From a virus, in the IMG/VR virus record IMGVR_UViG_3300033156_000775, positions 32,001 to 96,000 of that record: DNA of 64,000 nt; one strand, written 5' to 3'. A model generated the notes under the pieces. That model was not told where the DNA came from. It did not search any database and was given only the letters and a program-made list of their open reading frames with translations. How positions within the stretch are numbered: the first letter of the stretch is position 1; the number at the start of each line of letters is the position of its first letter. Below are positions 5,936 through 42,240 of this stretch, in pieces. The position numbers and the translations under genes are program-made.

Positions 5936-6886
5936 ATGAGCTACTATACAGACCGCTATGTGAAGTTTGGACAGGAAACTTCATGGGCTACTGCTGTCAC
6001 TCCAGACACATTTAGCAATTACCTGCTTAGGTTTGAAGGTGGATGGACAGATAATAGAGTAGATGAACCTGTAATTGCAGGGGAAAGGGATGCTAAGTCT
6101 AGGACCTATGTCCATAGAGAAGTAGCAGCTGTAATGCAGGTTCAGCCAGTGTCAGCCAGATGGTTTGAGCACTGTCTAGGAAGCCTAGATACTGCTGCTG
6201 GTAACTCTTTACCAGCTACCTTGACTCCTGGGTCTACACTGCCATCTATCACAGCTCAGAGAGTCTATAATCCAGTTCCAGGGGCTGAAGAGAATGCTCT
6301 TAAGCTTTGGGGCTTGAAAGTGGACACTTGGGAGCTTACAATAGAGCAGAGTGAAGACATAGTGCTAGAAATGAACTATGCTGGACATGACGGTACAATT
6401 GAAACTGTATCTTACTCAGCTCCATCAATAGACTATACTATCCCAGCTATGGCCTTCCACAATGCAGTTCTCAAATACAATGGAGACCCAATTAGGTTTA
6501 GGAGACTAGTAATTTCAGGGGACAACAATCTGGAGGCTAGATTCGAATCTGGAGGGACTCTTGGGAACACATTCTGCTGTCAGGAGCTAAGGGAAGGTGG
6601 ATGTGACATTAGTGGAAGGTTACAGCTAGACACTTCCCTAAGTACATACGCAGCTAATGTCCTCTCTAGAAGCGAAGGTACACTTGAATGTTCAATACAG
6701 ACATCAGCAGCTACAGTGGTTATTACATTGAGTAATGTAGCATTTGATGAATATAGAGAACCAATTACAGGGCTAGACGTCATAGAAGTTGAGATTCCAT
6801 TTAGCTGTAGAAGAGTAGATGCTAACACTCCAGCAATCCAGATGGTACAGAAGGGAACTGGACTCTGGACGGCTCTGAAGTACTAG
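5936..6886 (+). CDS. Major tail tube protein
   Basis: N-terminal FGQETSWATAVTP, plus LPSIT, GLKVDTWELTI and DISGRL patterns of siphoviral tail tube proteins; precedes the chaperone and tape measure genes. Confidence 0.8.
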   Translation: MSYYTDRYVKFGQETSWATAVTPDTFSNYLLRFEGGWTDNRVDEPVIAGERDAKSRTYVHREVAAVMQVQPVSARWFEHCLGSLDTAAGNSLPATLTPGSTLPSITAQRVYNPVPGAEENALKLWGLKVDTWELTIEQSEDIVLEMNYAGHDGTIETVSYSAPSIDYTIPAMAFHNAVLKYNGDPIRFRRLVISGDNNLEARFESGGTLGNTFCCQELREGGCDISGRLQLDTSLSTYAANVLSRSEGTLECSIQTSAATVVITLSNVAFDEYREPITGLDVIEVEIPFSCRRVDANTPAIQMVQKGTGLWTALKY

Positions 6887-25483: not shown

Positions 25484-26635
25484 ATGGAGGATGTTTATAT
25501 GAGGCTTGTTTTCAAGAAGGATGGTGAAAGGCCTCCCAACTTCTATATTGAAATTTCCTATGAAGAGAAAGACCTGATTAACAATTATATCTATGAGAGT
25601 GGAGTTTACTATATCAGTGACAAGATCTACCTGACCAATGCCACTGTGGCTAGAGCTCTAGGTCTCTCATCCAGATATTTGGACTATCATCCATTTATGA
25701 GTAGTTTTACTTCTAGGGAGCTCTTAAGTGCAGCCAAGATAGACATTGAAGATCCTGATGAAAGACAAAAGCTCATCTCTTCAGTGTACAAATACCTGAA
25801 AAACAGGCTTGAGATAGCCATGTCCAAGACTGTTAGGGATGAACGTTCTATTCCCCTAGACATATCTCCATCCCTAGGAGAAATGAATGTAAGCCTAGAG
25901 GAAGTAGGAAAGATAGGGACACCTTTCCTCATCTCTATCGGGGACAAGGTGTTTGAGGCTAAGCTAGTAAAGGAGATTGACAGCTTCAGAGACTACATGC
26001 AGAGAAGGCTGAAGCAGATAGTGGGGGCATATAGAAACCACATTACAGCTACTCTCAGTGCCCTACGTGACGAGTATGATAGGAAACTAGAGGAAATAGA
26101 AAAAACCAGGGAAACAATGATCCCAATGCCTAACATCACTCTTAGTGACTTAGCTACTGGCATGAGAATATGTAGGAACAACCAGTACCTAGAGGTTTAT
26201 CTGCCAGTGAAGGTAGAGATCAAAAGAGTCTTTTACAACAAGAAATCTTTTACATTGAAAAAGGAGTACTGGTGTACTCTCAGAGGACTAGCTGGACTAG
26301 CACTGGATCGTGATCTTACAATAGTGTCAACCAAGTTTGTGAGGTCTAAGAGGGCAAGTAGGGGAGTTAGGCATCCTAACGTGAATGATGATGGAATGGT
26401 GTGTCTTGGCTATACTAGACAGATCCTAGGTAGGAGGCTAAACGACATACATGATGCTTACACATGGATATATTCAGTGGTTGATTTGCTGTCCGTACCT
26501 AACTTCGATGATGCATACGATGTCCATGTTTCACAATGGGCTAGGGAGGTCTTTGATGCTCTGGAAAGTGGCCACTCAAGTGAGGTAGTAGAGGAAGTGG
26601 CTACTCTTCCTTCAGAAGTAGTGTGGAGGACATAA
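25484..26635 (+). CDS. E2 ubiquitin-conjugating-like protein with an N-terminal coiled-coil extension
   Basis: HPNVNDDGMVCLG matches the E2 HPN..G.(I/V)CL catalytic motif, and downstream LLSVPNFDDAY matches the E2 LL..PN..D motif. Confidence 0.8.
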   Translation: MEDVYMRLVFKKDGERPPNFYIEISYEEKDLINNYIYESGVYYISDKIYLTNATVARALGLSSRYLDYHPFMSSFTSRELLSAAKIDIEDPDERQKLISSVYKYLKNRLEIAMSKTVRDERSIPLDISPSLGEMNVSLEEVGKIGTPFLISIGDKVFEAKLVKEIDSFRDYMQRRLKQIVGAYRNHITATLSALRDEYDRKLEEIEKTRETMIPMPNITLSDLATGMRICRNNQYLEVYLPVKVEIKRVFYNKKSFTLKKEYWCTLRGLAGLALDRDLTIVSTKFVRSKRASRGVRHPNVNDDGMVCLGYTRQILGRRLNDIHDAYTWIYSVVDLLSVPNFDDAYDVHVSQWAREVFDALESGHSSEVVEEVATLPSEVVWRT

Positions 26636-26638
26636 CTA

Positions 26639-27277
26639 TTGTACGCTAGGCAGTCTAGTTTAAATCTCCATATTCCAAGTGACATTGGGATCATCGGGTG
26701 TGGAGGCATAGGCTCATGGGTAGCCATCTACTCTGCTATGGGAGGAGTAAGGACAATCAGCTTGTTTGACCCTGACATCCTAGAGATCCATAACCTGAAT
26801 AGACTTCCATATCCTGAGAGTGCTGTGGGCATGAAGAAAGTAGATGTCCTTAGAGAATACCTAGTCCACATTAGGCCTCAGAGTGAGGTATTTGCCTACG
26901 ATAGACGTATTTCAAGGGACAATGCAACCCTACTTCACAAGTGTAAAATAGTCTTTGACTGTACAGATAGCACCAGAGCCCATAGGTTGATAGAGGGCTT
27001 ATGGGTCAAGAAGAGCTTTACTGATCTGATTAGAGCCTCATATGATGGTGACCATTACACCTTGTCCAAGAACCTTCGTTTAGAGAGCATGTCTTGGGGA
27101 AATGAAACCTCTGGGTACCAGATTGTCCCCAGCTGGGTCATCCCAGCATCGTTCATAGCCCAGATTGCATGTTGGTTGGCATATGCTGAGGATGCCCCTG
27201 AAAGATACTTTCTTTCTAACAGTTTAAGGAATACTGTTAACCGTTTCATTTATGGAGGTAAGACCACAATTGACTAG
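26639..27277 (+). CDS. E1/ThiF-family adenylyltransferase
   Basis: YARQ, IIGCGGIGS, DPDILEIHNLNR, KVD and FDCTDS motifs. Confidence 0.9.
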   Translation: MYARQSSLNLHIPSDIGIIGCGGIGSWVAIYSAMGGVRTISLFDPDILEIHNLNRLPYPESAVGMKKVDVLREYLVHIRPQSEVFAYDRRISRDNATLLHKCKIVFDCTDSTRAHRLIEGLWVKKSFTDLIRASYDGDHYTLSKNLRLESMSWGNETSGYQIVPSWVIPASFIAQIACWLAYAEDAPERYFLSNSLRNTVNRFIYGGKTTID

Positions 27278-28605: not shown

Positions 28606-29841
28606 ATGGAAAGCTCTATGGAATGGATACCATCTGAAATACTGTCATCAATTAGAGAGGAGCTCAAGGGAGCTAGAAGTATCCAGGATATCAGGAGTAT
28701 TGTAGTCCAAGCTACAAGATGTAAGCCTGGTGACATTAAAGATTTCCATTACAAGCTTGGAGGACATGACTGGAAAGGGGTGATCTATACTAAACGGAAC
28801 ACTCTTATGGGATCAGTATTCTCACTGTTTGACAGTAAACCCTTTGTAGTTAGAGGCTATCCTAAGATCAGATATGCATTAGATTCTAAACTCTTAGGAA
28901 AGGAAGTAACTGTACAGATGAAGTATGACGGGACTAACATTGGACTTTTCCTCCTACCTAATGGAGAGATCATGGGAAAGACTAGGCTGATGCCTAGATG
29001 GGATGTCCAGTCTTTACAGGCTATGAAGAGACAGGTTTCTCATTGGAAAGAGCTCTTTACGAAGATAGATGATGGCTATCTCCTTAAGCAAGTCAAGTAT
29101 CTAGCTGAAGATGACTACATGATATTTGGAGAGCTCTATGGATATCTAAATCCTGGAGAATTCATTAAATATTCAATTCCAATAGCCTTCAAAGCTTTCG
29201 ATATAGTTGACACTAGGACACTAAAGTTTCTTAGCTCTAAAGACATGGAGGATCTATGCTATGAGCTGGACATTCCATATGTAGAGGAGCTATGGCATGG
29301 TATCCTAACTAGGAAAGAGGTTGAACGAATAGAGTACGAAGCTAAACAGTATGTAAGAGAGGATGGCTATGAGGGATTTGTAGCTAAGCATTTCTCCCCT
29401 ATAGATAACGACATGCACTTCTGCAAGCTTAAATGTGAAGAGATAAAGGAGAAAGCCTGGAAGCTTAGACCTACTGGAATCCCAATTTCTATTATTCGTA
29501 AAGCCATACGAAAGGCTATGGAAAGCTACCCATACTATGACAAAGTAGATCAGCTATATCCAGTAGTTAGAGAGGAGCTCCTAGAAGAAGTAGAGCCCTC
29601 ATTGGTAGATGAATCAGAGAACAAGATAAGATCTGTTATTAGAAGAGTACTGTCTCCTACACCTGAGGAGCTAAAGAAGTCCATAAGGGAAATTATGCTT
29701 GAGCTTAGGGAGAGAGGTATGGACTTGAACAAGAAGGGAGAAGTGCTCCCAGCTCTAGCTCATCGTCTAGGAGACATATCAGGAAAAATGCTTTACAGAC
29801 TTTACACTCAAGTCTTATTTGAGATGGAAAGTGAAGTGTAG
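28606..29841 (+). CDS. ATP-dependent RNA ligase (Rnl family)
   Basis: RGYPKI, motif I KYDGTN, FGELYG, AFDI, EGFVAK and KLK motifs; no OB domain; helical C-terminus. Confidence 0.8.
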   Translation: MESSMEWIPSEILSSIREELKGARSIQDIRSIVVQATRCKPGDIKDFHYKLGGHDWKGVIYTKRNTLMGSVFSLFDSKPFVVRGYPKIRYALDSKLLGKEVTVQMKYDGTNIGLFLLPNGEIMGKTRLMPRWDVQSLQAMKRQVSHWKELFTKIDDGYLLKQVKYLAEDDYMIFGELYGYLNPGEFIKYSIPIAFKAFDIVDTRTLKFLSSKDMEDLCYELDIPYVEELWHGILTRKEVERIEYEAKQYVREDGYEGFVAKHFSPIDNDMHFCKLKCEEIKEKAWKLRPTGIPISIIRKAIRKAMESYPYYDKVDQLYPVVREELLEEVEPSLVDESENKIRSVIRRVLSPTPEELKKSIREIMLELRERGMDLNKKGEVLPALAHRLGDISGKMLYRLYTQVLFEMESEV

Positions 29842-30095
29842 TCCGGACTACATTCTTAAGGAGAGTTTCCTAATGAGAGAAGAATGTATAAAGGAAATTC
29901 TAAAGTCCTACTATAAGTGGAAAGCTGTAGGTGTAGCTGGTATCTGGATAGGAGCTGGAGTGGCCTGTTTATCCTCTACAGGAGATATCCCAGCATTAAT
30001 CATATTCCTAGCTATGTTCTCATCTCTGCTCTATACTATGATAGGTGCTCCTGACTTCTATGCTAAGTGGATAAGGAAGAAAGGAGACTAGCTCA

Positions 30096-30635
30096 GTGAA
30101 AACGTGGTTTACAGCTGACACTCACTTTGGACATTCTAATATTATCAAGTACTGTAACAGACCATTCAAGTCAGTAGATCATATGGATATGAGGCTTATC
30201 CAGCTATGGAACTCTAGGGTTAAGAAGCATGACATAGTTATCCATCTAGGGGACTTTATGTTTAAGGACATCAATAAGAGGGAATACTATCTAGACCAGC
30301 TTAATGGACACATTACCTTCATAAGGGGAAACCATGACCATAGCAATTCTCTCAATACCAAGATTAGCTACCTAGTGGTTCACATATCCAACATGGATGT
30401 TTACTGTACTCATAGACCTGAGGACTTTAATTCCTCCTATCCTATCAACCTTGTAGGTCATGTCCATGAGAAATGGAAGGTAAAGAAGATCTACAACACT
30501 TATCTGGTCAATGTGGGAGTGGATGTCTGGAACTATCATCCTGTAGATATCAATGAGATCCTAAAGGCTATTAATGATTACAAGCTCTTCTGGGAGAAGA
30601 TAGGGAAGACAGGCCAGGTAGGTTTAACTGAATGA
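30096..30635 (+). CDS. Calcineurin-like metallophosphoesterase
   Basis: DTHFGH, LGD, GNHD, GHVH and NVGVD motifs. Confidence 0.9.
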   Translation: MKTWFTADTHFGHSNIIKYCNRPFKSVDHMDMRLIQLWNSRVKKHDIVIHLGDFMFKDINKREYYLDQLNGHITFIRGNHDHSNSLNTKISYLVVHISNMDVYCTHRPEDFNSSYPINLVGHVHEKWKVKKIYNTYLVNVGVDVWNYHPVDINEILKAINDYKLFWEKIGKTGQVGLTE

Positions 30636-30713: not shown

Positions 30714-31184
30714 ATGCCCTGGTCTAAAAGAGTTTCGAAAACAAAAGTTGTCTGCCTTTCTTGCGGTCGTAGTATCTATCTTAAGCCTTTACCGAGCTGT
30801 GCTGAACCTGCTCACTTGGCATATTATGAAAAAAGAAAGAAACGAAATAATGAATACAGGAGAAAACGCCGTGAGGAAGCTAGAAGACGAGGTGAAGTGT
30901 ATCGTTCTGAAAGACCTGAAACAAGAAGAGCAAGAGAAAGGAGGAAATACAGAAAGGTTAGAGAGGCTTTGCTCCAAAAATTGGGAGGAAAATGTGTGCG
31001 ATGTGGTTTCTCAGATATTAGGGCATTGCATATCCATCATATAAATGGAGATGGAGGGAAAGAACGTAAAAAACTTGGATGGAAATATCTTAAGATTCTC
31101 TCAGAAATGCCAGAAAAAGAACTTAGAGAACAATATGAAGTCCTCTGTGCGAATTGCCATGAAATCCTCCATCACACCAGTTAG
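30714..31184 (+). CDS. HNH endonuclease (free-standing, putative homing)
   Basis: CVRCG..LHIHHING..VLCANCH; Arg-rich linker. Confidence 0.8.
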   Translation: MPWSKRVSKTKVVCLSCGRSIYLKPLPSCAEPAHLAYYEKRKKRNNEYRRKRREEARRRGEVYRSERPETRRARERRKYRKVREALLQKLGGKCVRCGFSDIRALHIHHINGDGGKERKKLGWKYLKILSEMPEKELREQYEVLCANCHEILHHTS

Positions 31185-31479
31185 GGTTCAGAGAAAGAGA
31201 ACTAAAGGTTTCAGACTTCAAGATGCTAGTCCTAACGGGCTTCCTGTAGTCTATGTTGGACGTCCATCTAAATGGGCAAACCCATTTAGAATAGGTATTG
31301 ACGGAGACAGGGAAGCTGTAGTTAGGAAATTTAGAGAATATGCTATGAAAAAGTTGAAAGAAGATCCTAACTGGCTAGAACCTTTAAGAGGTAAGGATCT
31401 GGCATGCTGGTGTCCTCTAGATAAGCCTTGTCATGCTGATGTCTTGATAGAGCTTCTAAGAAAGGAGGCTGGTAAATGA
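31159..31479 (+). CDS. DUF4326-like protein
   Basis: RVQRKRTKG..VYVGRPSKWANPF..LRGKDLACWCP..CHADVL. Confidence 0.8.
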   Translation: MKSSITPVRVQRKRTKGFRLQDASPNGLPVVYVGRPSKWANPFRIGIDGDREAVVRKFREYAMKKLKEDPNWLEPLRGKDLACWCPLDKPCHADVLIELLRKEAGK

Positions 31480-31633
31480 TAAGGATTGACAACATACATG
31501 CATGTAAAATTAAGCTAACAGAGGATGGTTGGAAATTCTATTTCTTCAGTAGAGAATGTGACTTTGAGGTAACTGTCCTTAGGGACCATAGCCTACGAAT
31601 TAGACAGGAAAAGCCATTAGTATCAGAGGACAA

Positions 31634-32389
31634 ATGACAATGGATCTACTTATAGAGCCCGATCTAAAAGAGTTTATCAGTCGTTTACCAGATATTAGTC
31701 TTGACCCTCCAAGCGTCCATCTAGTTATGCTAGCTATAAGAAGTAGGAAGGCTAAGCAGATCCTAGGGATAAAGATCAAGGACTTGGTTGTAGAGAGAAG
31801 GATTATTAGGCCTTCTAAATGGAGAGAGAAATACTTCAAGACTGTGTATAACCTAGCTCTCCTACAGCATCATGGACTCTACTACTATAAGGGGTTAGAG
31901 ATACCTCTACAAGCTAAAGCCATCTACGCTACGTTGACTCCAAGAAATGTATATCATGCCATAGCTGACCTGATGAAGGAGAACATATCCTATCTATTTC
32001 AGGGAGATGACTCAGCTAGGTATCAGCTTACAAAGCAGGATATCCGTTTCTTTGGATGCTTACATAGACACAAAATGAGGACTAACAACTTTGTCACTCT
32101 AGATCTTGATAACAATGATGAAAAGATCCTGAAAGAGATCCTAGACTATGTTTCAGTCCTACCTCTATTCTTGGTCACTGAAACGTCCAGAGGCTATCAT
32201 ATAGTGTTGGATTTATCCAAGTCTGATGATGCTAGAGCCTTCTATGGACAGGAAAAGATAATGCAGAAGCTAGGACTGAAATTTGCAGATAAGGGATTAG
32301 AGTTTCAAAGAGATAGTCAGGAGCCTGTTCCAGGGACTTTATATTTCAAGGAGAATGGGTCTCCTCATTATGTTAAGATTTTATATTAG
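31634..32389 (+). CDS. Putative archaeo-eukaryotic primase (AEP) superfamily nucleotidyltransferase
   Basis: hhhDxD (VTLDLD) and T..GYH (ETSRGYHIV) motifs, plus a downstream PVPGT. Confidence 0.5.
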   Translation: MTMDLLIEPDLKEFISRLPDISLDPPSVHLVMLAIRSRKAKQILGIKIKDLVVERRIIRPSKWREKYFKTVYNLALLQHHGLYYYKGLEIPLQAKAIYATLTPRNVYHAIADLMKENISYLFQGDDSARYQLTKQDIRFFGCLHRHKMRTNNFVTLDLDNNDEKILKEILDYVSVLPLFLVTETSRGYHIVLDLSKSDDARAFYGQEKIMQKLGLKFADKGLEFQRDSQEPVPGTLYFKENGSPHYVKILY

Positions 32390-32998
32390 CATTTTAGGGT
32401 GATGAAGCTTAAATAAAGAGGAAATAGAAAGGATGCTAGGTATTCCAGAAGCCCAAGCAGAGGTGCTATTCGATATAATACAGCTTTGCAACAAGCATGG
32501 AATTGACATTGTTGATCTTGAGGGTTATCTACAAGATCTCATATGGATTGAGGATCTTACAAGAGCTTCAGGGAAAGGTGTAGTCCGGACTACACTTAGA
32601 GAAGCTCTGGAAAGACTAGGCACTACAGATTGAAAGAGAGAAGCTTATGGACTAATGGACTAATATTTACAAATTTATTTCTGTTTAGGAAACAAATAAT
32701 GTAGTCCGGACTACATCTTAACTTAATCATTGGAAATTTATCTGGTACTTTAGGTGAAGGAAATGAATGAGATATTGTTTAAACTAGGACATAGGATAGA
32801 TGAGCTTGAAGAGAAACTGAACCTAGTCATTGCAGCTAATCAATATCCACATCTAAGAAACCAGATCCTAAGGAGAATCTTGAGTAATAGTGCCCGTTCT
32901 TAGTACTCCTACCACTACAAATTATCTCTATTTCCACAATATTTATATTTGAAAGGGCTATCTTGAGTCCTTCACTGGTAAACGAATAATGAAACGTG

Positions 32999-33057
32999 AT
33001 GTGACAATGATGGAGCTTACAAACACGGAGTCTGTTGAGCTCCATTAGCTCTCACAT
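32999..33057 (+). ncRNA. Y-RNA-like unit 1 (minimal; short hairpin cargo)
   Basis: Outer helix ATGTGA/TCACAT; inner TGATGGAGCT-TACA..AGCTCCATTA; cargo AACA..TGTT hairpin. Confidence 0.75.
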
Positions 33058-33067
33058 AAGTTGATTG

Positions 33068-33199
33068 GTGTGACTTGGACAGGAGCTTACAGGTCTAAAG
33101 CGTCACCCTGCTAAGGTGAAGATCTAGGTTCAAGTCCTAGCATGTCCACCATACTGGGCATGTGGCTGAAGTGGTTTAGAGCTCCTGTCACCTTCACAC
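33068..33199 (+). ncRNA. Y-RNA-like unit 2 carrying a circularly permuted tRNA mimic (anticodon GCT)
   Basis: GTGTGA/TCACAC; GACAGGAGCT-TACA..AGCTCCTGTC. Cargo: anticodon arm TCACC-CTGCTAA-GGTGA, T arm CTAGG-TTCAAGT-CCTAG, CATGTCC-A-CCA linked to GGGCATG-TG-GCTGAAGTGG. Confidence 0.85.
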
Positions 33200-33209
33200 A
33201 GATTAAGTG

Positions 33210-33301
33210 ATGTGCCTAGCTAGGAGCTTACAAACTGTGGCTATGGATACACGGTTAAGCTGGTAGGTCCAGCTGGTTAGAAGCTCCTAGCACTTGCACA
33301 T
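33210..33301 (+). ncRNA. Y-RNA-like unit 3 (two-hairpin cargo)
   Basis: ATGTGC/GCACAT; GCTAGGAGCT-TACA..AGCTCCTAGC; cargo AACTGTG/CACGGTT and AGCTGG/CCAGCT hairpins. Confidence 0.8.
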
Positions 33302-33308
33302 ATCTAAG

Positions 33309-33392
33309 ATGTCCCATAGACAGGAGCTTACAAACTGCCCCAACCAAACTAAAGCTGGCAACTCTAGAAGAAAGCTCCTGTCACCTGGACAT
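33309..33392 (+). ncRNA. Y-RNA-like unit 4
   Basis: ATGTCC/GGACAT; GACAGGAGCT-TACA..AGCTCCTGTC-ACCT; cargo TGCC/GGCA hairpin. Confidence 0.8.
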
Positions 33393-33421
33393 ATCCTGTA
33401 AACACACTGGAGGATGATGAA

Positions 33422-33619
33422 ATGTCTATACTTAGGGTGGTAGTTGGACAGGACATTCAGGAGCTAGAAGTATCTGAGAACATGGCTAGACTGTCAGATG
33501 AGGAGATACTTAGCTTTGTAAGGGAAGCTACAAATAGACCTGTAGATCCAGAGGACTTTGTAGTGGATAGGACAGAAAACAACAACATAGTGGTTAGGCC
33601 TAGAGCTGTCTATGGATAG
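33422..33619 (+). CDS. Putative ubiquitin-like protein of the TROVE/vWA locus
   Basis: 65 aa with a beta-alpha-beta pattern, ending VVRPRAVYG (C-terminal Gly); GGAGG RBS; embedded in the RNA array. Confidence 0.6.
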   Translation: MSILRVVVGQDIQELEVSENMARLSDEEILSFVREATNRPVDPEDFVVDRTENNNIVVRPRAVYG

Positions 33620-33762
33620 TGACAATATTGGATGAGATATTATCCATTCCAGATCCTAGTGGCCCTAGAAATTTCATTAAGAGGAATCTCAGGGTAGGAA
33701 AGGCTATAGATCAATACGGACATATCTATCCTACTTATATATCTAAAGCTATCTATGGATAA
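33619..33762 (+). CDS. 47-aa peptide ending KAIYG
   Basis: GTG start overlaps the stop of the previous gene; MTILDEILS..YISKAIYG*; below the ORF-track cutoff. Confidence 0.4.
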   Translation: MTILDEILSIPDPSGPRNFIKRNLRVGKAIDQYGHIYPTYISKAIYG

Positions 33763-33927
33763 GGGCTGAACATTGACTGATAATTCTAAACACATATTAA
33801 CACCGAAGAAACTATTAGAGAAGTTTCTTAAAGTGTCTCTTCCTGCCTATATAATTGGGCTAGAGATATTCCCTGAATCTGGAGCTATATGGATAATCAA
33901 AGAAGATAATATGGATGTCCATTGAAG

Positions 33928-34056
33928 GTGTGCTTTATGGATAGGAGCTTACAGCACACAGGGCTACCAGATCCTGTAGTATGGGTTCAAGTCCCGTCAT
34001 AAGCAGCAGCTTGGCTATGTAGTGCAACTGGACAAGAGCTCCTATCACCTGCACAC
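33928..34056 (+). ncRNA. Y-RNA-like unit 5 carrying a circularly permuted tRNA mimic (Trp-like 8-nt anticodon loop)
   Basis: GTGTGC/GCACAC; GATAGGAGCT-TACA..AGCTCCTATC-ACCT. Cargo: GCAC-A-CAGGG-CTACCAGA-TCCTG, ATGGG-TTCAAGT-CCCGT, CATAAGC..GCTATG-TA-GTGC-AACTGG. Confidence 0.85.
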
Positions 34057-34097
34057 AATAGCTTAGCGGGTCCTCACTTTCCTGTCTAAGTTACCTG

Positions 34098-34228
34098 GTG
34101 TACCATGATGAGAGCTTACAAACCCAGTGTCGGTGGGAGAGATGTGGGTTCAAGTCCCACTATCCCTACATGGGATATGGTCTAACTGGCTGAGGACGCT
34201 TAATGTATAGCTCTCATCTCCTGTACAC
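34098..34228 (+). ncRNA. Y-RNA-like unit 6 with a YrlA-type tRNA elbow mimic
   Basis: GTGTAC/GTACAC; GATGAGAGCT-TACA..AGCTCTCATC. Cargo: T arm GTGGG-TTCAAGT-CCCAC, closed acceptor TATCCC-TACAT-GGGATA, D arm GTC-TAACTGGCTGAG-GAC. Confidence 0.85.
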
Positions 34229-34445
34229 TTTAATCCTCGTAGCGAAGTTAGAACGGATATGAGTTGATCTAATTTGCCAATCGATGTAAATCCATCTGAG
34301 CGTTGTATCTTTACTGAATTACCAGTTAAATGTAGAATTAGAGCTGAGTTTAATCCAAAACCTGAGCTCTTAGTCAAGTTCTGTAGTATTTGTCCTGTTT
34401 TGATGGTGATAAAAAATAATATGAAATGAAAAGGAGAAATAGGTT

Positions 34446-35900
34446 ATGTCAGTAGATGAAAGAATACCCATATATCAAGAGCTCTTCCAGTCTATACTAG
34501 ATTGTCCACATGGAAACCTAGAGGAGACATTCAGAGTCCATAAGGAAGTCCTAGAGAAGAACCCACTGTTCTATATGAAGATGGCTGCTTGGTACATGAA
34601 GAATGGGATGGTTAGAGACCACAAAGTTGCTTTTGTAAAGACATTGATGGAGGCTGATGATCCTACTTTGAGGGATGAGGGATGGGCTCTTATTCAGAGG
34701 CTGCCCATACACTTGTTAGCTCAGGTAGTCCGGTCTACAAAGAAGACTAAGGCACTACGGTCAGCCGTGAAGCACAAGCTAGCTGAAATGCCATATAACA
34801 GGCTAGTGTCTGAGATCCTTAGATCATCTAAAGACCTTAAGAGCATGGTTGTTGCTCTACACATACCTACAACCAAGTCTTCAAACTTGAACTTTGAGAC
34901 TATAGGAACTGAATTGTTCACTAAGAATCGTCCAATAAGGAGAGTCTTTGCTCAGCTAAGGAATGAGGAAGACCCAGATAAAGTAGCTGTCTTGCTTGAG
35001 AAGCTACCTATCCCATCCTACATTGCCATGACCTCTATCAAGGTACGTACACCTGAAATAGTGAGAGTGCTAGTCAAACGTATGACTCCTAATGAGCTTA
35101 TACAGTCTCTTAACATGCTGGGTAGGTTGAGAGCTATCAAGCCTAACATGGACATTATTAGGGGGAAGCTAGATAAGCTTGTATCTGACCCTAGAGTGAA
35201 CGCTATGAGAGTCCTCAACATCCTACAGCATCTAGAGCCAGCTCTAGTTCCCTATGAAGTGTTTGAGGTACTTGAGAGAGCTGTGTCCAGAAAAGCAAAG
35301 AGCATAAGCAAGATAGATGCTAGGGTCTCCCTCCACATTGACACTTCAGGTAGCATGGAGCCTGCTATTGAGATAGGGAAGATGCTGGCTACATCACTAT
35401 CCATTGCATGTAAAGAGCCTCCTACGGTATACAGTGTGTCTAGCACTCCATTCAAGGTTCAGCCTAGTAGCTACACTCCCTCAGGATGGAAGGAATCTTT
35501 CAGTCTACTGAGAGCTAATGGTGCTACCCCTCTTGGAGCAGGAATATCCCTAATGAAGCAGCATGGAGACACATGTGATGTCATCATACTGGTCACCGAC
35601 ACAGGGGAGAACTCATTCCCCAAGTTTGCTGATGAGTACCAGACATTAGGCAACAAGCCTAGAGTGATAATCCTCAATGTCAGCAGACACCCTGATAGAG
35701 GGTTCTTAGGGTCCCTCAGAAGAGCTAATGTATCCTTTGAAATGCTACAGGTTAGAAGAGTAGATCAATACTCAGTGGACCAAGTGGTTACCCTTATAGG
35801 AGAAAGTAGCCCCTTCAAGACCATAATGGAGATAATGAACACTGATGTCCCATTGAGACCTACATGGACTAAGAAGCCCCAGTACTGGCTGAAGAAATAG
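34446..35900 (+). CDS. TROVE/Ro60 (Rsr)-like helical RNA-binding protein with a C-terminal vWA domain
   Basis: Helical N-terminal region (PLFYMKMAAWY..G.VRDHK); vWA MIDAS motif HIDTSGSM, GATPLG and LVTDTGEN; 484 aa; adjacent to Y-RNA-like genes. Confidence 0.75.
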   Translation: MSVDERIPIYQELFQSILDCPHGNLEETFRVHKEVLEKNPLFYMKMAAWYMKNGMVRDHKVAFVKTLMEADDPTLRDEGWALIQRLPIHLLAQVVRSTKKTKALRSAVKHKLAEMPYNRLVSEILRSSKDLKSMVVALHIPTTKSSNLNFETIGTELFTKNRPIRRVFAQLRNEEDPDKVAVLLEKLPIPSYIAMTSIKVRTPEIVRVLVKRMTPNELIQSLNMLGRLRAIKPNMDIIRGKLDKLVSDPRVNAMRVLNILQHLEPALVPYEVFEVLERAVSRKAKSISKIDARVSLHIDTSGSMEPAIEIGKMLATSLSIACKEPPTVYSVSSTPFKVQPSSYTPSGWKESFSLLRANGATPLGAGISLMKQHGDTCDVIILVTDTGENSFPKFADEYQTLGNKPRVIILNVSRHPDRGFLGSLRRANVSFEMLQVRRVDQYSVDQVVTLIGESSPFKTIMEIMNTDVPLRPTWTKKPQYWLKK

Positions 35901-41568: not shown

Positions 41569-42240
41569 ATGAAGAGAATGTCCAAAATAGATAGGCAATT
41601 CCTACATGAGTTTCTTTACAGAGGAAAAGAGCTAGAATCCCTAGAAGATAAACAAGTTACGCTGTGTGGGTGTGGAGCTCTAGGGACTTGGACAGCTGTG
41701 TTCCTAGCTAGGAGTGGACTTAGACATTTCAGGCTGATAGATATGGATAAGGTTGAGATACACAACACTTCTACTCAAGCATTCTTCCTAGAGAACCTTA
41801 ACCAATACAAGGCTACTGCTCTGTCCAGAATCCTCTACAGAATCAACAGAGCTAGATCCTCAATCTACAATGAGGAGCTAACAGCTGACAATGTGTCCCT
41901 AGCTTTCGATGACACAGACTTGGTTATTTGTACATTTGACAACTATAAATCTAGAAAGCTGGTTAGGGACAAGGCCCTAGAGCTAGACTTTCCAACAGTG
42001 TTTGCAGGTATGAATGGAAGCCTAAACTATGGGGAGGTAGCTTGGGCTGAGGATTACAATCCTCCTAGAGATCCTAAATCTAGAGATATAGACCCATGCA
42101 ATTATCCATTAGCAACAACTTTAGTGGTGTTGACTTCAGCTGTACTAGCTGAGGTCTCTCTAAACTATCTCCTTAAAGGATTCAAGTTCTATAAGCCATT
42201 TGGCTTTTCATTTAGCTCTTTCCAGGTAATTTCAAAATAA
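41569..42240 (+). CDS. Second E1/ThiF-family protein
   Basis: HEFLYRG, LCGCGALG, DMDKVEIHN, CTFDN; candidate catalytic Cys in DPCNYPLA. Confidence 0.85.
   Translation: MKRMSKIDRQFLHEFLYRGKELESLEDKQVTLCGCGALGTWTAVFLARSGLRHFRLIDMDKVEIHNTSTQAFFLENLNQYKATALSRILYRINRARSSIYNEELTADNVSLAFDDTDLVICTFDNYKSRKLVRDKALELDFPTVFAGMNGSLNYGEVAWAEDYNPPRDPKSRDIDPCNYPLATTLVVLTSAVLAEVSLNYLLKGFKFYKPFGFSFSSFQVISK

Follow-up and report, generated by a model that had tools for sequence, protein, structure and literature searches.

A viral array of candidate Y-RNA-like units beside a divergent Ro60-like gene, with tRNA-like cargos predicted to open at the D loop

YrlA, a Y RNA encoded beside Ro60, consists of a T arm, a closed acceptor and a D arm and has been likened to a circularly permuted transfer RNA (tRNA). 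Its anticodon stem is made by the two ends of the RNA and continues into the Ro stem, there is no anticodon loop, the variable region begins with a YUAY motif, and an origin from tandem tRNAs has been proposed (Chen et al., 2014, PMC4201824; Wang et al., 2018, 10.1101/312249). The YrlA of Mycobacterium smegmatis has an acceptor of 7 base pairs (bp), is cut by RNase P and receives CCA, and Yrn1 of Deinococcus radiodurans can be depicted as having a T arm plus a closed "anticodon arm" with a 5-bp stem (PMC4201824). Ro60 has also been reported from the Nidhogg viruses of Helarchaeota (Asgard), whose complete genomes encode Ro60 (TROVE and vWA), an RNA ligase and three E1-like genes; the paper speculates on a Y RNA partner and describes none, and its text does not mention tRNA (Rambo et al., 10.1101/2021.07.29.454249). 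Here we analyse an array of six RNA units upstream of a divergent Ro60-like gene in the IMG/VR virus record IMGVR_UViG_3300033156_000775. The window, that is the whole stretch of DNA that was analysed, comprises 64,000 nucleotides (nt), bases 32001-96000 of this 107,029-bp record with direct terminal repeats.

Units 2 and 5 of the array

The six units lie on the plus strand at 33001-34228 of the window and share one frame, which runs from an outer helix through an internal loop and an inner helix to UACA and a variable cargo (Table 1). The common part, here called the handle, has an outer helix of 6 bp (e.g. GTGTGA/TCACAC), an internal loop of about 4x4 nt (4x4 or 6x4) whose 3' side reads ACCU or ACUU, and an inner helix of 9-10 bp that terminates in GGAGCU/AGCUCC throughout, with GAGAGCU/AGCUCUC in unit 6. 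Across the six units the handle motifs GAGCTTACA on the 5' side and AGCTC(C/T) on the 3' side recur, and the upper part of the inner helix shows compensatory differences among units (ACAGG/CCTGT, CTAGG/CCTAG, ATAGG/CCTAT, ATGAG/CTCAT). The sequence GGAGCTTACA also occurs at window positions 6331 and 57532; on inspection both copies were judged to be chance, as no matching 3' strand lies nearby.

In unit 2 the cargo starts behind UACA with GGUCUA, followed by the D 3' strand AAGC, G26, an anticodon arm UCACC-CUGCUAA-GGUGA and AGAU. It continues with a T arm CUAGG-UUCAAGU-CCUAG, a closed acceptor CAUGUCC-ACCAUACU-GGGCAUG, the dinucleotide UG, the D 5' strand GCUG and AAGUGGUUUAG, where the 3' strand of the handle takes over. 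This arm order and its coordinates had been given in the initial annotation and all proved correct on re-check, and so did its near-duplicated junction, with GGTCTAAAGC at 33092 and GGTTTAGAGC at 33173 identical in 8 of 10 bases. Throughout, we compared three orthologs, namely those of the window and of the related loci L040 and L037, with a mean column identity of 90-93%. All 36 pairs of the proposed unit 2 fold are standard in the three of them. The anticodon arm, on whose conservation the initial annotation had made its case depend, is kept in homologs: the unit 2 loops of the other two orthologs read ATGCTAG and TTGCTAA, and U33, GCU and A37 are preserved. The A-CCA that had been noted behind the 3' acceptor strand is encoded in the window and in L037; in L040 the CCA is missing.

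Unit 5 follows the same permutation, with the 8-nt loop CTACCAGA in its anticodon arm, and here, too, the earlier coordinates were correct. It has no encoded CCA, its acceptor hairpin carries a 4-nt bulge in the window genome, and a GG lies in the 3' part of the D loop, so that the handle leaves after G18-G19 in unit 5 and before G18-G19 in unit 2. The loops of the three unit 5 orthologs differ (CTACCAGA, CTATCAGA and CTGAAGA; 8 nt in two of three), and because of this we dropped the label "Trp-like" that the loop had been given. Anticodon loops of 8 nt occur in two independent lineages of handle-embedded cargos, in the window (33964-33971) and in L041 (2670-2746, minus strand), and ARAGORN assigns four-base anticodons to these cargos (acca/atca and cttc).

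The initial annotation had proposed that units 2 and 5 are whole tRNAs permuted at the D loop and that re-permutation could reveal this. We therefore moved the ends of each cargo into the acceptor loop and ran ARAGORN at its default threshold on both units from the three genomes. All six re-permuted cargos were called as tRNAs, unit 2 as Ser-GCT in each case and unit 5 with two four-base "anticodons" and one Phe-GAA, while none of 1,800 dinucleotide shuffles of the cargos was called. Calls were limited to rotations that end in or beside the acceptor loop. Folding led to the same picture. For unit 2, the handle together with the D-stem-closed cloverleaf has a free energy of -51.4, -51.6 and -53.9 kcal/mol (window, L040 and L037), which is the minimum free energy (MFE) or lies at most 0.8 kcal/mol above it, and the MFE folds of the L040 and L037 orthologs include the D stem formed in trans (4 bp in L040). 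For unit 5 the corresponding cloverleaf lies 0.2-2.6 kcal/mol above the MFE in the three orthologs. In the permuted folds the spacing is exactly that of a tRNA, with 2 nt behind the acceptor strand and 1 nt ahead of the anticodon stem. Between the paralogs, the trans D stem shows compensatory differences (AGC/GCU in unit 2, GCAC/GUGC in unit 5). The exact tRNA register, the compensation between paralogs, the folding energy and the recurrence of the arrangement at other loci support the trans D stem. Since this stem closes the four-way junction, the handle would exit the module through the D loop. By these predictions, units 2 and 5 are confirmed as complete cloverleaves in permuted order, broken in the D loop.

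Unit 6 has the YrlA order of T arm, closed acceptor and D arm, as previously described, both in sequence and in fold. What had been overlooked is a hairpin in front of the T arm of this unit (34123-34137), with a 4-bp stem and a loop of 7 nt. ARAGORN made no call on any rotation of unit 6. The array slot of this unit holds a 33-nt hairpin cargo in L040 (2884-2955) and L036 (429-500). Judged from sequence, the cargo in the last array slot is swapped within a fixed handle, between relatives whose Ro-like proteins are 90-91% identical.

Table 1. Features of the array and its neighbourhood (window coordinates).
Feature	Coordinates	Strand	Remarks
Unit 1	33001..33057	+	Handle (outer stem, inner stem ATGGAGCT/AGCTCCAT, UACA), short-hairpin cargo; from sequence and MFE fold; ortholog in L040
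Unit 2	33068..33199	+	Handle plus predicted D-loop-opened tRNA mimic
Unit 2 handle	33068-33073/33194-33199 (outer stem); 33078-33087/33180-33189 (inner stem); 33088-33091 (UACA)		4x4 loop CUUG/ACCU
Unit 2 GG	33092-33093		Precedes D 3' strand; kept in three of three orthologs
Unit 2 D-stem 3' strand	33099..33101	+	AGC; trans pairing with GCT 33165-33167
Unit 2 anticodon arm	33103..33119	+	TCACC/CTGCTAA/GGTGA; loop 33108-33114, anticodon GCT 33110-33112
Unit 2 T arm	33124..33140	+	CTAGG TTCAAGT CCTAG; two compensatory pair changes among orthologs
Unit 2 closed acceptor hairpin	33141..33162	+	CATGTCC 33141-33147, loop ACCATACT with CCA 33149-33151, GGGCATG 33156-33162; 7/7 pairs in three orthologs
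Unit 2 U8-G9 and D 5' strand	33163-33164; 33165-33168		D 5' strand GCTG
Competing native-order "tRNA-Ser GCT"	33077..33151	+	ARAGORN; Rfam RF00005, 53.3 bits
Unit 3	33207..33300	+	Handle, two-hairpin cargo, not tRNA-like
Unit 4	33309..33392	+	Handle, short cargo, not tRNA-like
65-aa open reading frame between units 4 and 5	33422..33619	+	C-terminus RPRAVYG
Unit 5	33928..34056	+	Handle plus predicted D-loop-opened tRNA mimic
Unit 5 handle	33940-33949/34037-34046 (inner stem); 33950-33953 (UACA)
Unit 5 D 3' strand	33954-33957		GCAC; trans pairing with GTGC 34022-34025
Unit 5 anticodon arm	33959-33976		8-nt loop CTACCAGA 33964-33971
Unit 5 T arm, acceptor and D loop	33981-33997 (T arm); 33998-34019 (acceptor hairpin); 34020-34021 (U8-A9); 34026-34036 (D loop)		D loop AACTGGACAAG
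Unit 6	34096..34228	+	Handle plus YrlA-like module; UACA 34117-34120
Unit 6 arms	34144-34160 (T arm); 34161-34177 (acceptor); 34180-34197 (D hairpin)		Closed 6-bp acceptor; local D hairpin
Divergent Ro60-like protein, 484 aa	34446..35900	+	Helical ring plus vWA domain; MIDAS DTSGSM, residues 299-304
RNA ligase, 90-aa open reading frame, metallophosphoesterase	28606..30635	+	Ligase 28606-29841, phosphoesterase 30096-30635; PF09414, PF12850

Related loci and the range of cargos

Two scans with the Ro60-like protein yielded a family set of about 110 distinct viral loci, in which handle RNAs with UACA behind the stem recur. Orthologous arrays are present in L040, L037, L036 and L008, and in more distant loci with a Ro60-like gene the same stem and UACA enclose varied cargos. 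Closer relatives (L008, L042, L043 and L055) carry short hairpins. At L041 and L045-L051 a tRNA-like cargo in natural order follows directly after UACA, some of these having 5-bp acceptors and others a full acceptor with ACCA. The natural-order cargos of L045 (4493-4610) and L046 (5762-5879) have the anticodons GTG and TCA, respectively, and differ in one base elsewhere; from this comparison the anticodon appears to be their fast-evolving part. The TCA anticodon of L046 would read the stop codon UGA. A blastn comparison of the array with GenBank phages gave no matches, and a search of viral contigs for the pattern GGAGCTTACAG...GGTTCRAGTCC found no further orthologs.

Brute-force rotation combined with ARAGORN over closed-acceptor modules was too permissive to classify topologies, and we therefore sorted all T arms directly followed by a loop-closed acceptor by explicit arm-by-arm rules. 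Among the 82 distinct modules, 38 are YrlA-like (T, acceptor, D), 15 are full cloverleaves opened in the variable region, 11 have an upstream anticodon arm and a local D hairpin, 6 are D-open and 12 fall into none of these classes. Unit 2 of the window and of L037 was placed in the class with an upstream anticodon arm because of its local hairpin. In the 15 modules opened in the variable region the anticodon arm follows the D arm and the handle takes the variable-arm position. Consequently, an intact anticodon arm is not special to units 2 and 5.

Beyond the L040 and L037 orthologs of units 2 and 5, the D-open set contains modules at L029:3144, L070:3180 and L115:3277. All three re-permute to tRNAs according to ARAGORN, which finds no native-order tRNA over any of them, and the MFE folds of the L070 and L115 modules include the trans D stem. 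These two and unit 2 share the order UACA-(U)GG-UYWA-D3', in which the handle enters before G18-G19; in unit 5 and L029 the GG is on the other side and the handle enters after G19. When 5-bp hairpins were collected without any constraint on loop sequence, T occupied loop position 2 in 21 of 21, and those with a 7-nt loop had a purine at position 6 in 20 of 20, which is the U33/R37 signature of anticodon loops.

The commonest full mimic in huge-phage relatives is ordered UACA, T arm, closed acceptor, D arm and anticodon arm, with the handle at the variable-arm position (L013 2640-2770, L033 3530-3729, L026 147-346, and L024, L025, L021 and L031). Anticodons among the huge-phage mimics include CTA (amber-reading), CAT, TTT, GAA and TCG. 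A naive scan for 8-bp stems closing just before TACA returned 169 on the gene strand versus 74-102 in three controls, an excess and not a clean detector.

The Ro60-like gene, its neighbours and the presumed host

The Ro60-like gene begins 218 nt past the end of the array, within the distance of about 4 kb from a Ro60 ortholog that serves as a criterion for YrlA. The protein has no match in Pfam, PHROG or NCBIfam, and the Pfam TROVE model (PF05731) finds neither the protein nor anything in the six-frame translation of the genome at E up to 10. Its AlphaFold (AF2) model has a predicted local distance difference test score (pLDDT) of 86. With this model, the top 12 Foldseek matches in the PDB are all Ro60/TROVE proteins, aligned over the full length with E of about 1e-10, template modelling (TM) scores of 0.56-0.65 and probability 1.00, and include D. 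radiodurans Rsr and the Ro60 of a Thermus phage. The DxSGSM motif of the metal ion-dependent adhesion site (MIDAS) is invariant across 30 homologs. Its homologs are a clade of viral proteins and many cyanobacterial "vWA domain" proteins; tblastn with the protein returned one 595-kb uncultured phage at 26% identity. Judged by its structural model, the protein has the Ro60 fold, and it is presumed to be the partner of the array.

An RNA ligase gene and a metallophosphoesterase gene lie 3-5 kb upstream of the array and are syntenic with it. The ligase has a weak match to TIGR01209, which we take to represent archaeal, RNA-circularising ligases of the Pab1020 type; a sequence search of the PDB with the ligase gave no hit. 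By their annotation, the two genes form a neighbourhood of the RNA-repair type and point to tRNA damage or repair. Between the phosphoesterase and the array the window holds an HNH endonuclease (30714-31184), a DUF4326 protein (31045-31479) and two unknown open reading frames (ORFs), in all 30714-32633. This stretch is probably a mobile insertion, because the phosphoesterase gene of L037 stops 88 nt before the array.

Two ThiF/E1-like genes (26639-27277 and 41569-42240) and a weak UBC/E2-like match (25484-26635) are consistent with the ubiquitin-like systems reported for Nidhogg viruses. With its two ThiF/E1 genes and its E2-like gene, added to the Ro60-like gene and the RNA ligase, the window fits the gene content of those viruses, and the virus is therefore probably of the Nidhogg kind. 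The RNA array, however, has no counterpart in the published account of these viruses. In relatives with single handle RNAs, boxes of the TTTATA type stand after GAAAA about 25 nt upstream of the first base of the RNA (L042 ~640-680, L043 ~2290-2335, L044 ~2715-2760, L055 ~960-1000 and L046 ~1440-1490). They resemble archaeal promoters with a TFB recognition element (BRE) and a TATA box, which suggests that each RNA is its own transcript in those relatives. The Nidhogg-like gene content and the TATA-like boxes of the relatives indicate that the host is probably archaeal.

Within the array, units 1-4 are spaced about 10 nt apart behind one TATA-like box at ~32940. The ORF of 65 amino acids (aa) between units 4 and 5 is kept in L008 (3727-3937), L036, L037 (855-1073) and L040 (2364-2672 region) and has no matches in Pfam, PHROG or NCBIfam. 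The approximately 300 nt between this ORF and unit 5 (33620-33927) are missing from L040 and L037. Within this stretch, positions 33743-33761 nearly repeat the final 19 nt of the ORF (33600-33618), which points to duplication or insertion at this site.

Proposed role and comparison with known tRNA-like RNAs

We consider it likely that the six units serve the divergent Ro60-like protein encoded downstream as Y-RNA-like partners, because the handle recurs six times, the neighbouring protein has a predicted Ro60 fold, and the pairing of handle RNAs with Ro-like genes recurs across loci. By analogy with the Y RNA stems on Ro60, the handle would dock on the Ro60-like ring and display the variable cargo. 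In units 2 and 5 this cargo would be a tRNA-shaped module with a closed 7-bp acceptor, a T arm, an anticodon arm (U33, purine 37) and the trans D stem. By mimicking tRNA in a stable form, such a module probably recruits or occupies a factor that binds tRNA, as in YrlA, and it may serve as an adaptor or protective module, as has been proposed for the latter.

Several observations weigh against this reading. Compensatory changes among the orthologs are confined to the T stems and the acceptor hairpin of unit 5; the handle and the trans D stem are invariant, so that covariation gives no evidence for this stem in unit 2. With three sequences, too few and too similar, covariation was not significant (50-59 of 500 shuffles scored at least as well). 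The D stem of unit 2 has just 3 bp in the window and L037, and a local hairpin GCT...AGC, which borrows the AGC of the handle, competes with it. ARAGORN is lenient on D arms and calls many different joins, and the D arm depends on the join chosen. The Rfam model of YrlA (RF02553, gathering score 69 bits) found no match in 32800-34500 at E up to 10, the distant relative L013 reaches just 26.2 bits on it (model positions 30-81), and on inspection the Rsr-binding motif GNCGAA(N)G of YrlA is absent, the 5' strands reading GTGTGACTTGGACAGGAGCT and similar. Finally, a tRNA in native order that overlaps the handle of unit 2 scores 53.3, 56.5 and 37.8 bits on RF00005 (window, L037 and L040), in each case above the gathering score of 29.

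This native-order tRNA, which had been overlooked in the initial annotation, is the sole match in the window at an Rfam gathering score. It uses the handle strand GGACAGG as 5' acceptor strand and forms a D arm GCUU-ACAGGUCUA-AAGC. Unit 2 could accordingly be a plain viral tRNA gene followed by the remnant 5' half of a tandem copy, and its permuted look a functionless relic. The Rfam scores in all three orthologs speak for this, ARAGORN calls the tRNA in the window and in L037, and the duplicated junction GGTCTAAAGC/GGTTTAGAGC fits a tandem-tRNA origin. We nevertheless regard it as the least probable of the explanations considered, and very improbable in itself. According to the Rfam alignment, one linker nucleotide instead of two separates the acceptor from the D stem and U8 is missing. 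The acceptor contains a G-A mismatch in every ortholog. In L040, whose sequence ARAGORN does not call, T stands in place of G, which disrupts the 1-72 pair and adds a U-A pair to the inner stem of the handle. The best folds that contain the native-order tRNA have -36.1, -32.8 and -40.3 kcal/mol (window, L040 and L037), a cost of 14-19 kcal/mol relative to the handle fold of full unit 2. Moreover, the invariant second acceptor strand GGGCATG, which forms 7 of 7 pairs with CATGTCC, is left unexplained. The modules of unit 5, L070 and L115 have the same permuted order and allow no native-order reading; for unit 5 the native-order Rfam score is only 15.6 bits (E = 7.7). The native-order tRNA is thus the weaker reading of unit 2.

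Two other explanations accept the permuted order and assign it a different purpose. Units 2 and 5 might be permuted pre-tRNA genes, from which the handle is excised, the D loop ligated by the viral RNA ligase or a host RtcB, and the acceptor loop opened by RNase P/Z to give working tRNAs. The order of 3' part, acceptor loop and 5' part matches the permuted tRNA genes of Cyanidioschyzon and Thermofilum (10.1101/312249), the re-permuted units score as tRNAs, unit 2 encodes ACCA in the window and L037, the viral RNA ligase gene, whose product weakly matches TIGR01209, is found some 3 kb upstream, and the probably archaeal host (10.1101/2021.07.29.454249 and the TATA-like boxes) would have a splicing endonuclease. 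On inspection, however, the paired termini lack a bulge-helix-bulge (BHB) motif, that is staggered 3-nt bulges 4 bp apart; the closing stem of unit 2 has the symmetric 4x4 loop CUUG/ACCU, which ruled out reading the handle as a BHB. The same handle also encloses cargos that are not tRNA-like (units 1, 3 and 4) or are YrlA-like, and travels with the Ro-like gene. The loops are irregular as well: that of unit 5 has 8 nt and changes in sequence between close relatives, and the window unit 5 acceptor carries its 4-nt bulge. Unit 2 combines the anticodon GCT with a variable region of 4-5 nt, a combination ill-suited to SerRS. The missing BHB, the shared handle and the irregular loops weaken the route through a circular pre-tRNA, which we hold to be very unlikely. 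Alternatively, the displayed anticodon loops might be baits or sensors for host anticodon nucleases, with the Ro-like ring, ligase and phosphoesterase handling the damage. Here the U33/purine-37 signature is kept across the loops of the family, anticodons vary widely between units and close relatives (as in L045 and L046), ligase and phosphoesterase are syntenic with the array, and the bacterial rsr and yrlA genes belong to an RNA-repair operon induced by damaged tRNA (PMC7790460). On the other hand, an anticodon hairpin is absent from both sides of 38 of the 82 closed-acceptor modules, so that the system can do without a displayed loop; two of three unit 5 orthologs have loops of 8 nt, and no anticodon nuclease is known for the presumed host. 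This role seems unlikely, if less so than the preceding two.

Returning to the Y-RNA-like units on a Ro60-like partner, we can sketch a wider scheme, which is speculative and in our view doubtful. The Ro60 system of archaeal viruses and of huge and other phages might graft one handle onto tRNA mimics at a point where the chosen face stays free (acceptor, variable region, position 26 or D loop). Since the D-open forms present a genuine anticodon loop together with an acceptor of 7 bp that RNase P could open, they would then stand in for tRNA as tethered molecules, possibly ending in CCA, and would intercept host anticodon nucleases or feed the repair pair of ligase and phosphoesterase, amounting to a viral counter-defence on the Ro particle.

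The tRNA-mimicking Y RNAs known so far have a single topology, that of YrlA, without an anticodon loop. In at least four lineages, the conserved handle, protein-binding by analogy, is predicted to leave a full cloverleaf by way of the D loop, and relatives use other exit points. These exits, together with the U33/purine-37 loops, suggest that the system needs the whole tRNA shape, including the anticodon end, which would narrow the search for partners to tRNA-binding enzymes. The locus also supplies the missing candidate RNA partner for the Ro60 gene reported in viruses of Asgard archaea, and its units could be used as compact natural constructs in assays of binding, structure, RNase P or nucleases.

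Compared with permuted pre-tRNA genes, such as those of Cyanidioschyzon merolae and Thermofilum pendens, units 2 and 5 likewise place the 3' half first, join the halves through the acceptor and pair their termini, and D-loop breakpoints are among those reported for such genes. In contrast to them, units 2 and 5 have irregular loops and no BHB motif, on which permuted pre-tRNA genes rely to yield mature decoders, and their closing stem is a handle found throughout the family, also around cargos that do not resemble tRNA. Yrn1 provides a precedent for a Y RNA with an anticodon-like hairpin, but it has a 6-nt loop, an incomplete D arm and natural order instead of an opening in the D loop. The closest resemblance in layout is to YrlA: each locus has several units, encoded just ahead of the Ro60-type gene and on its strand, the two ends of each RNA form a long stem, the T arm and the loop-closed acceptor precede D-arm elements, and UUAC stands right after the 5' strand of the stem, like the YUAY motif. 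As in M. smegmatis YrlA, unit 2 has a 7-bp closed acceptor, with ACCA directly after the 3' strand in two of three orthologs, and a two-piece, CCA-ended unit 2 held together by the handle is therefore conceivable by analogy; unlike there, CCA is missing from unit 2 of L040 and from unit 5. Units 2 and 5 further depart from YrlA in retaining a closed anticodon arm, placed ahead of the T arm, in having a trans D stem and in letting the stem exit via the D loop, and the partner protein is too divergent for the TROVE model of Pfam. A literature search found no description of a D-loop-opened Y RNA topology. On present sequence comparison, these units are best read as a topological variant of the YrlA type that adds to the forms of tRNA mimicry known from Ro-partner (Y) RNAs.

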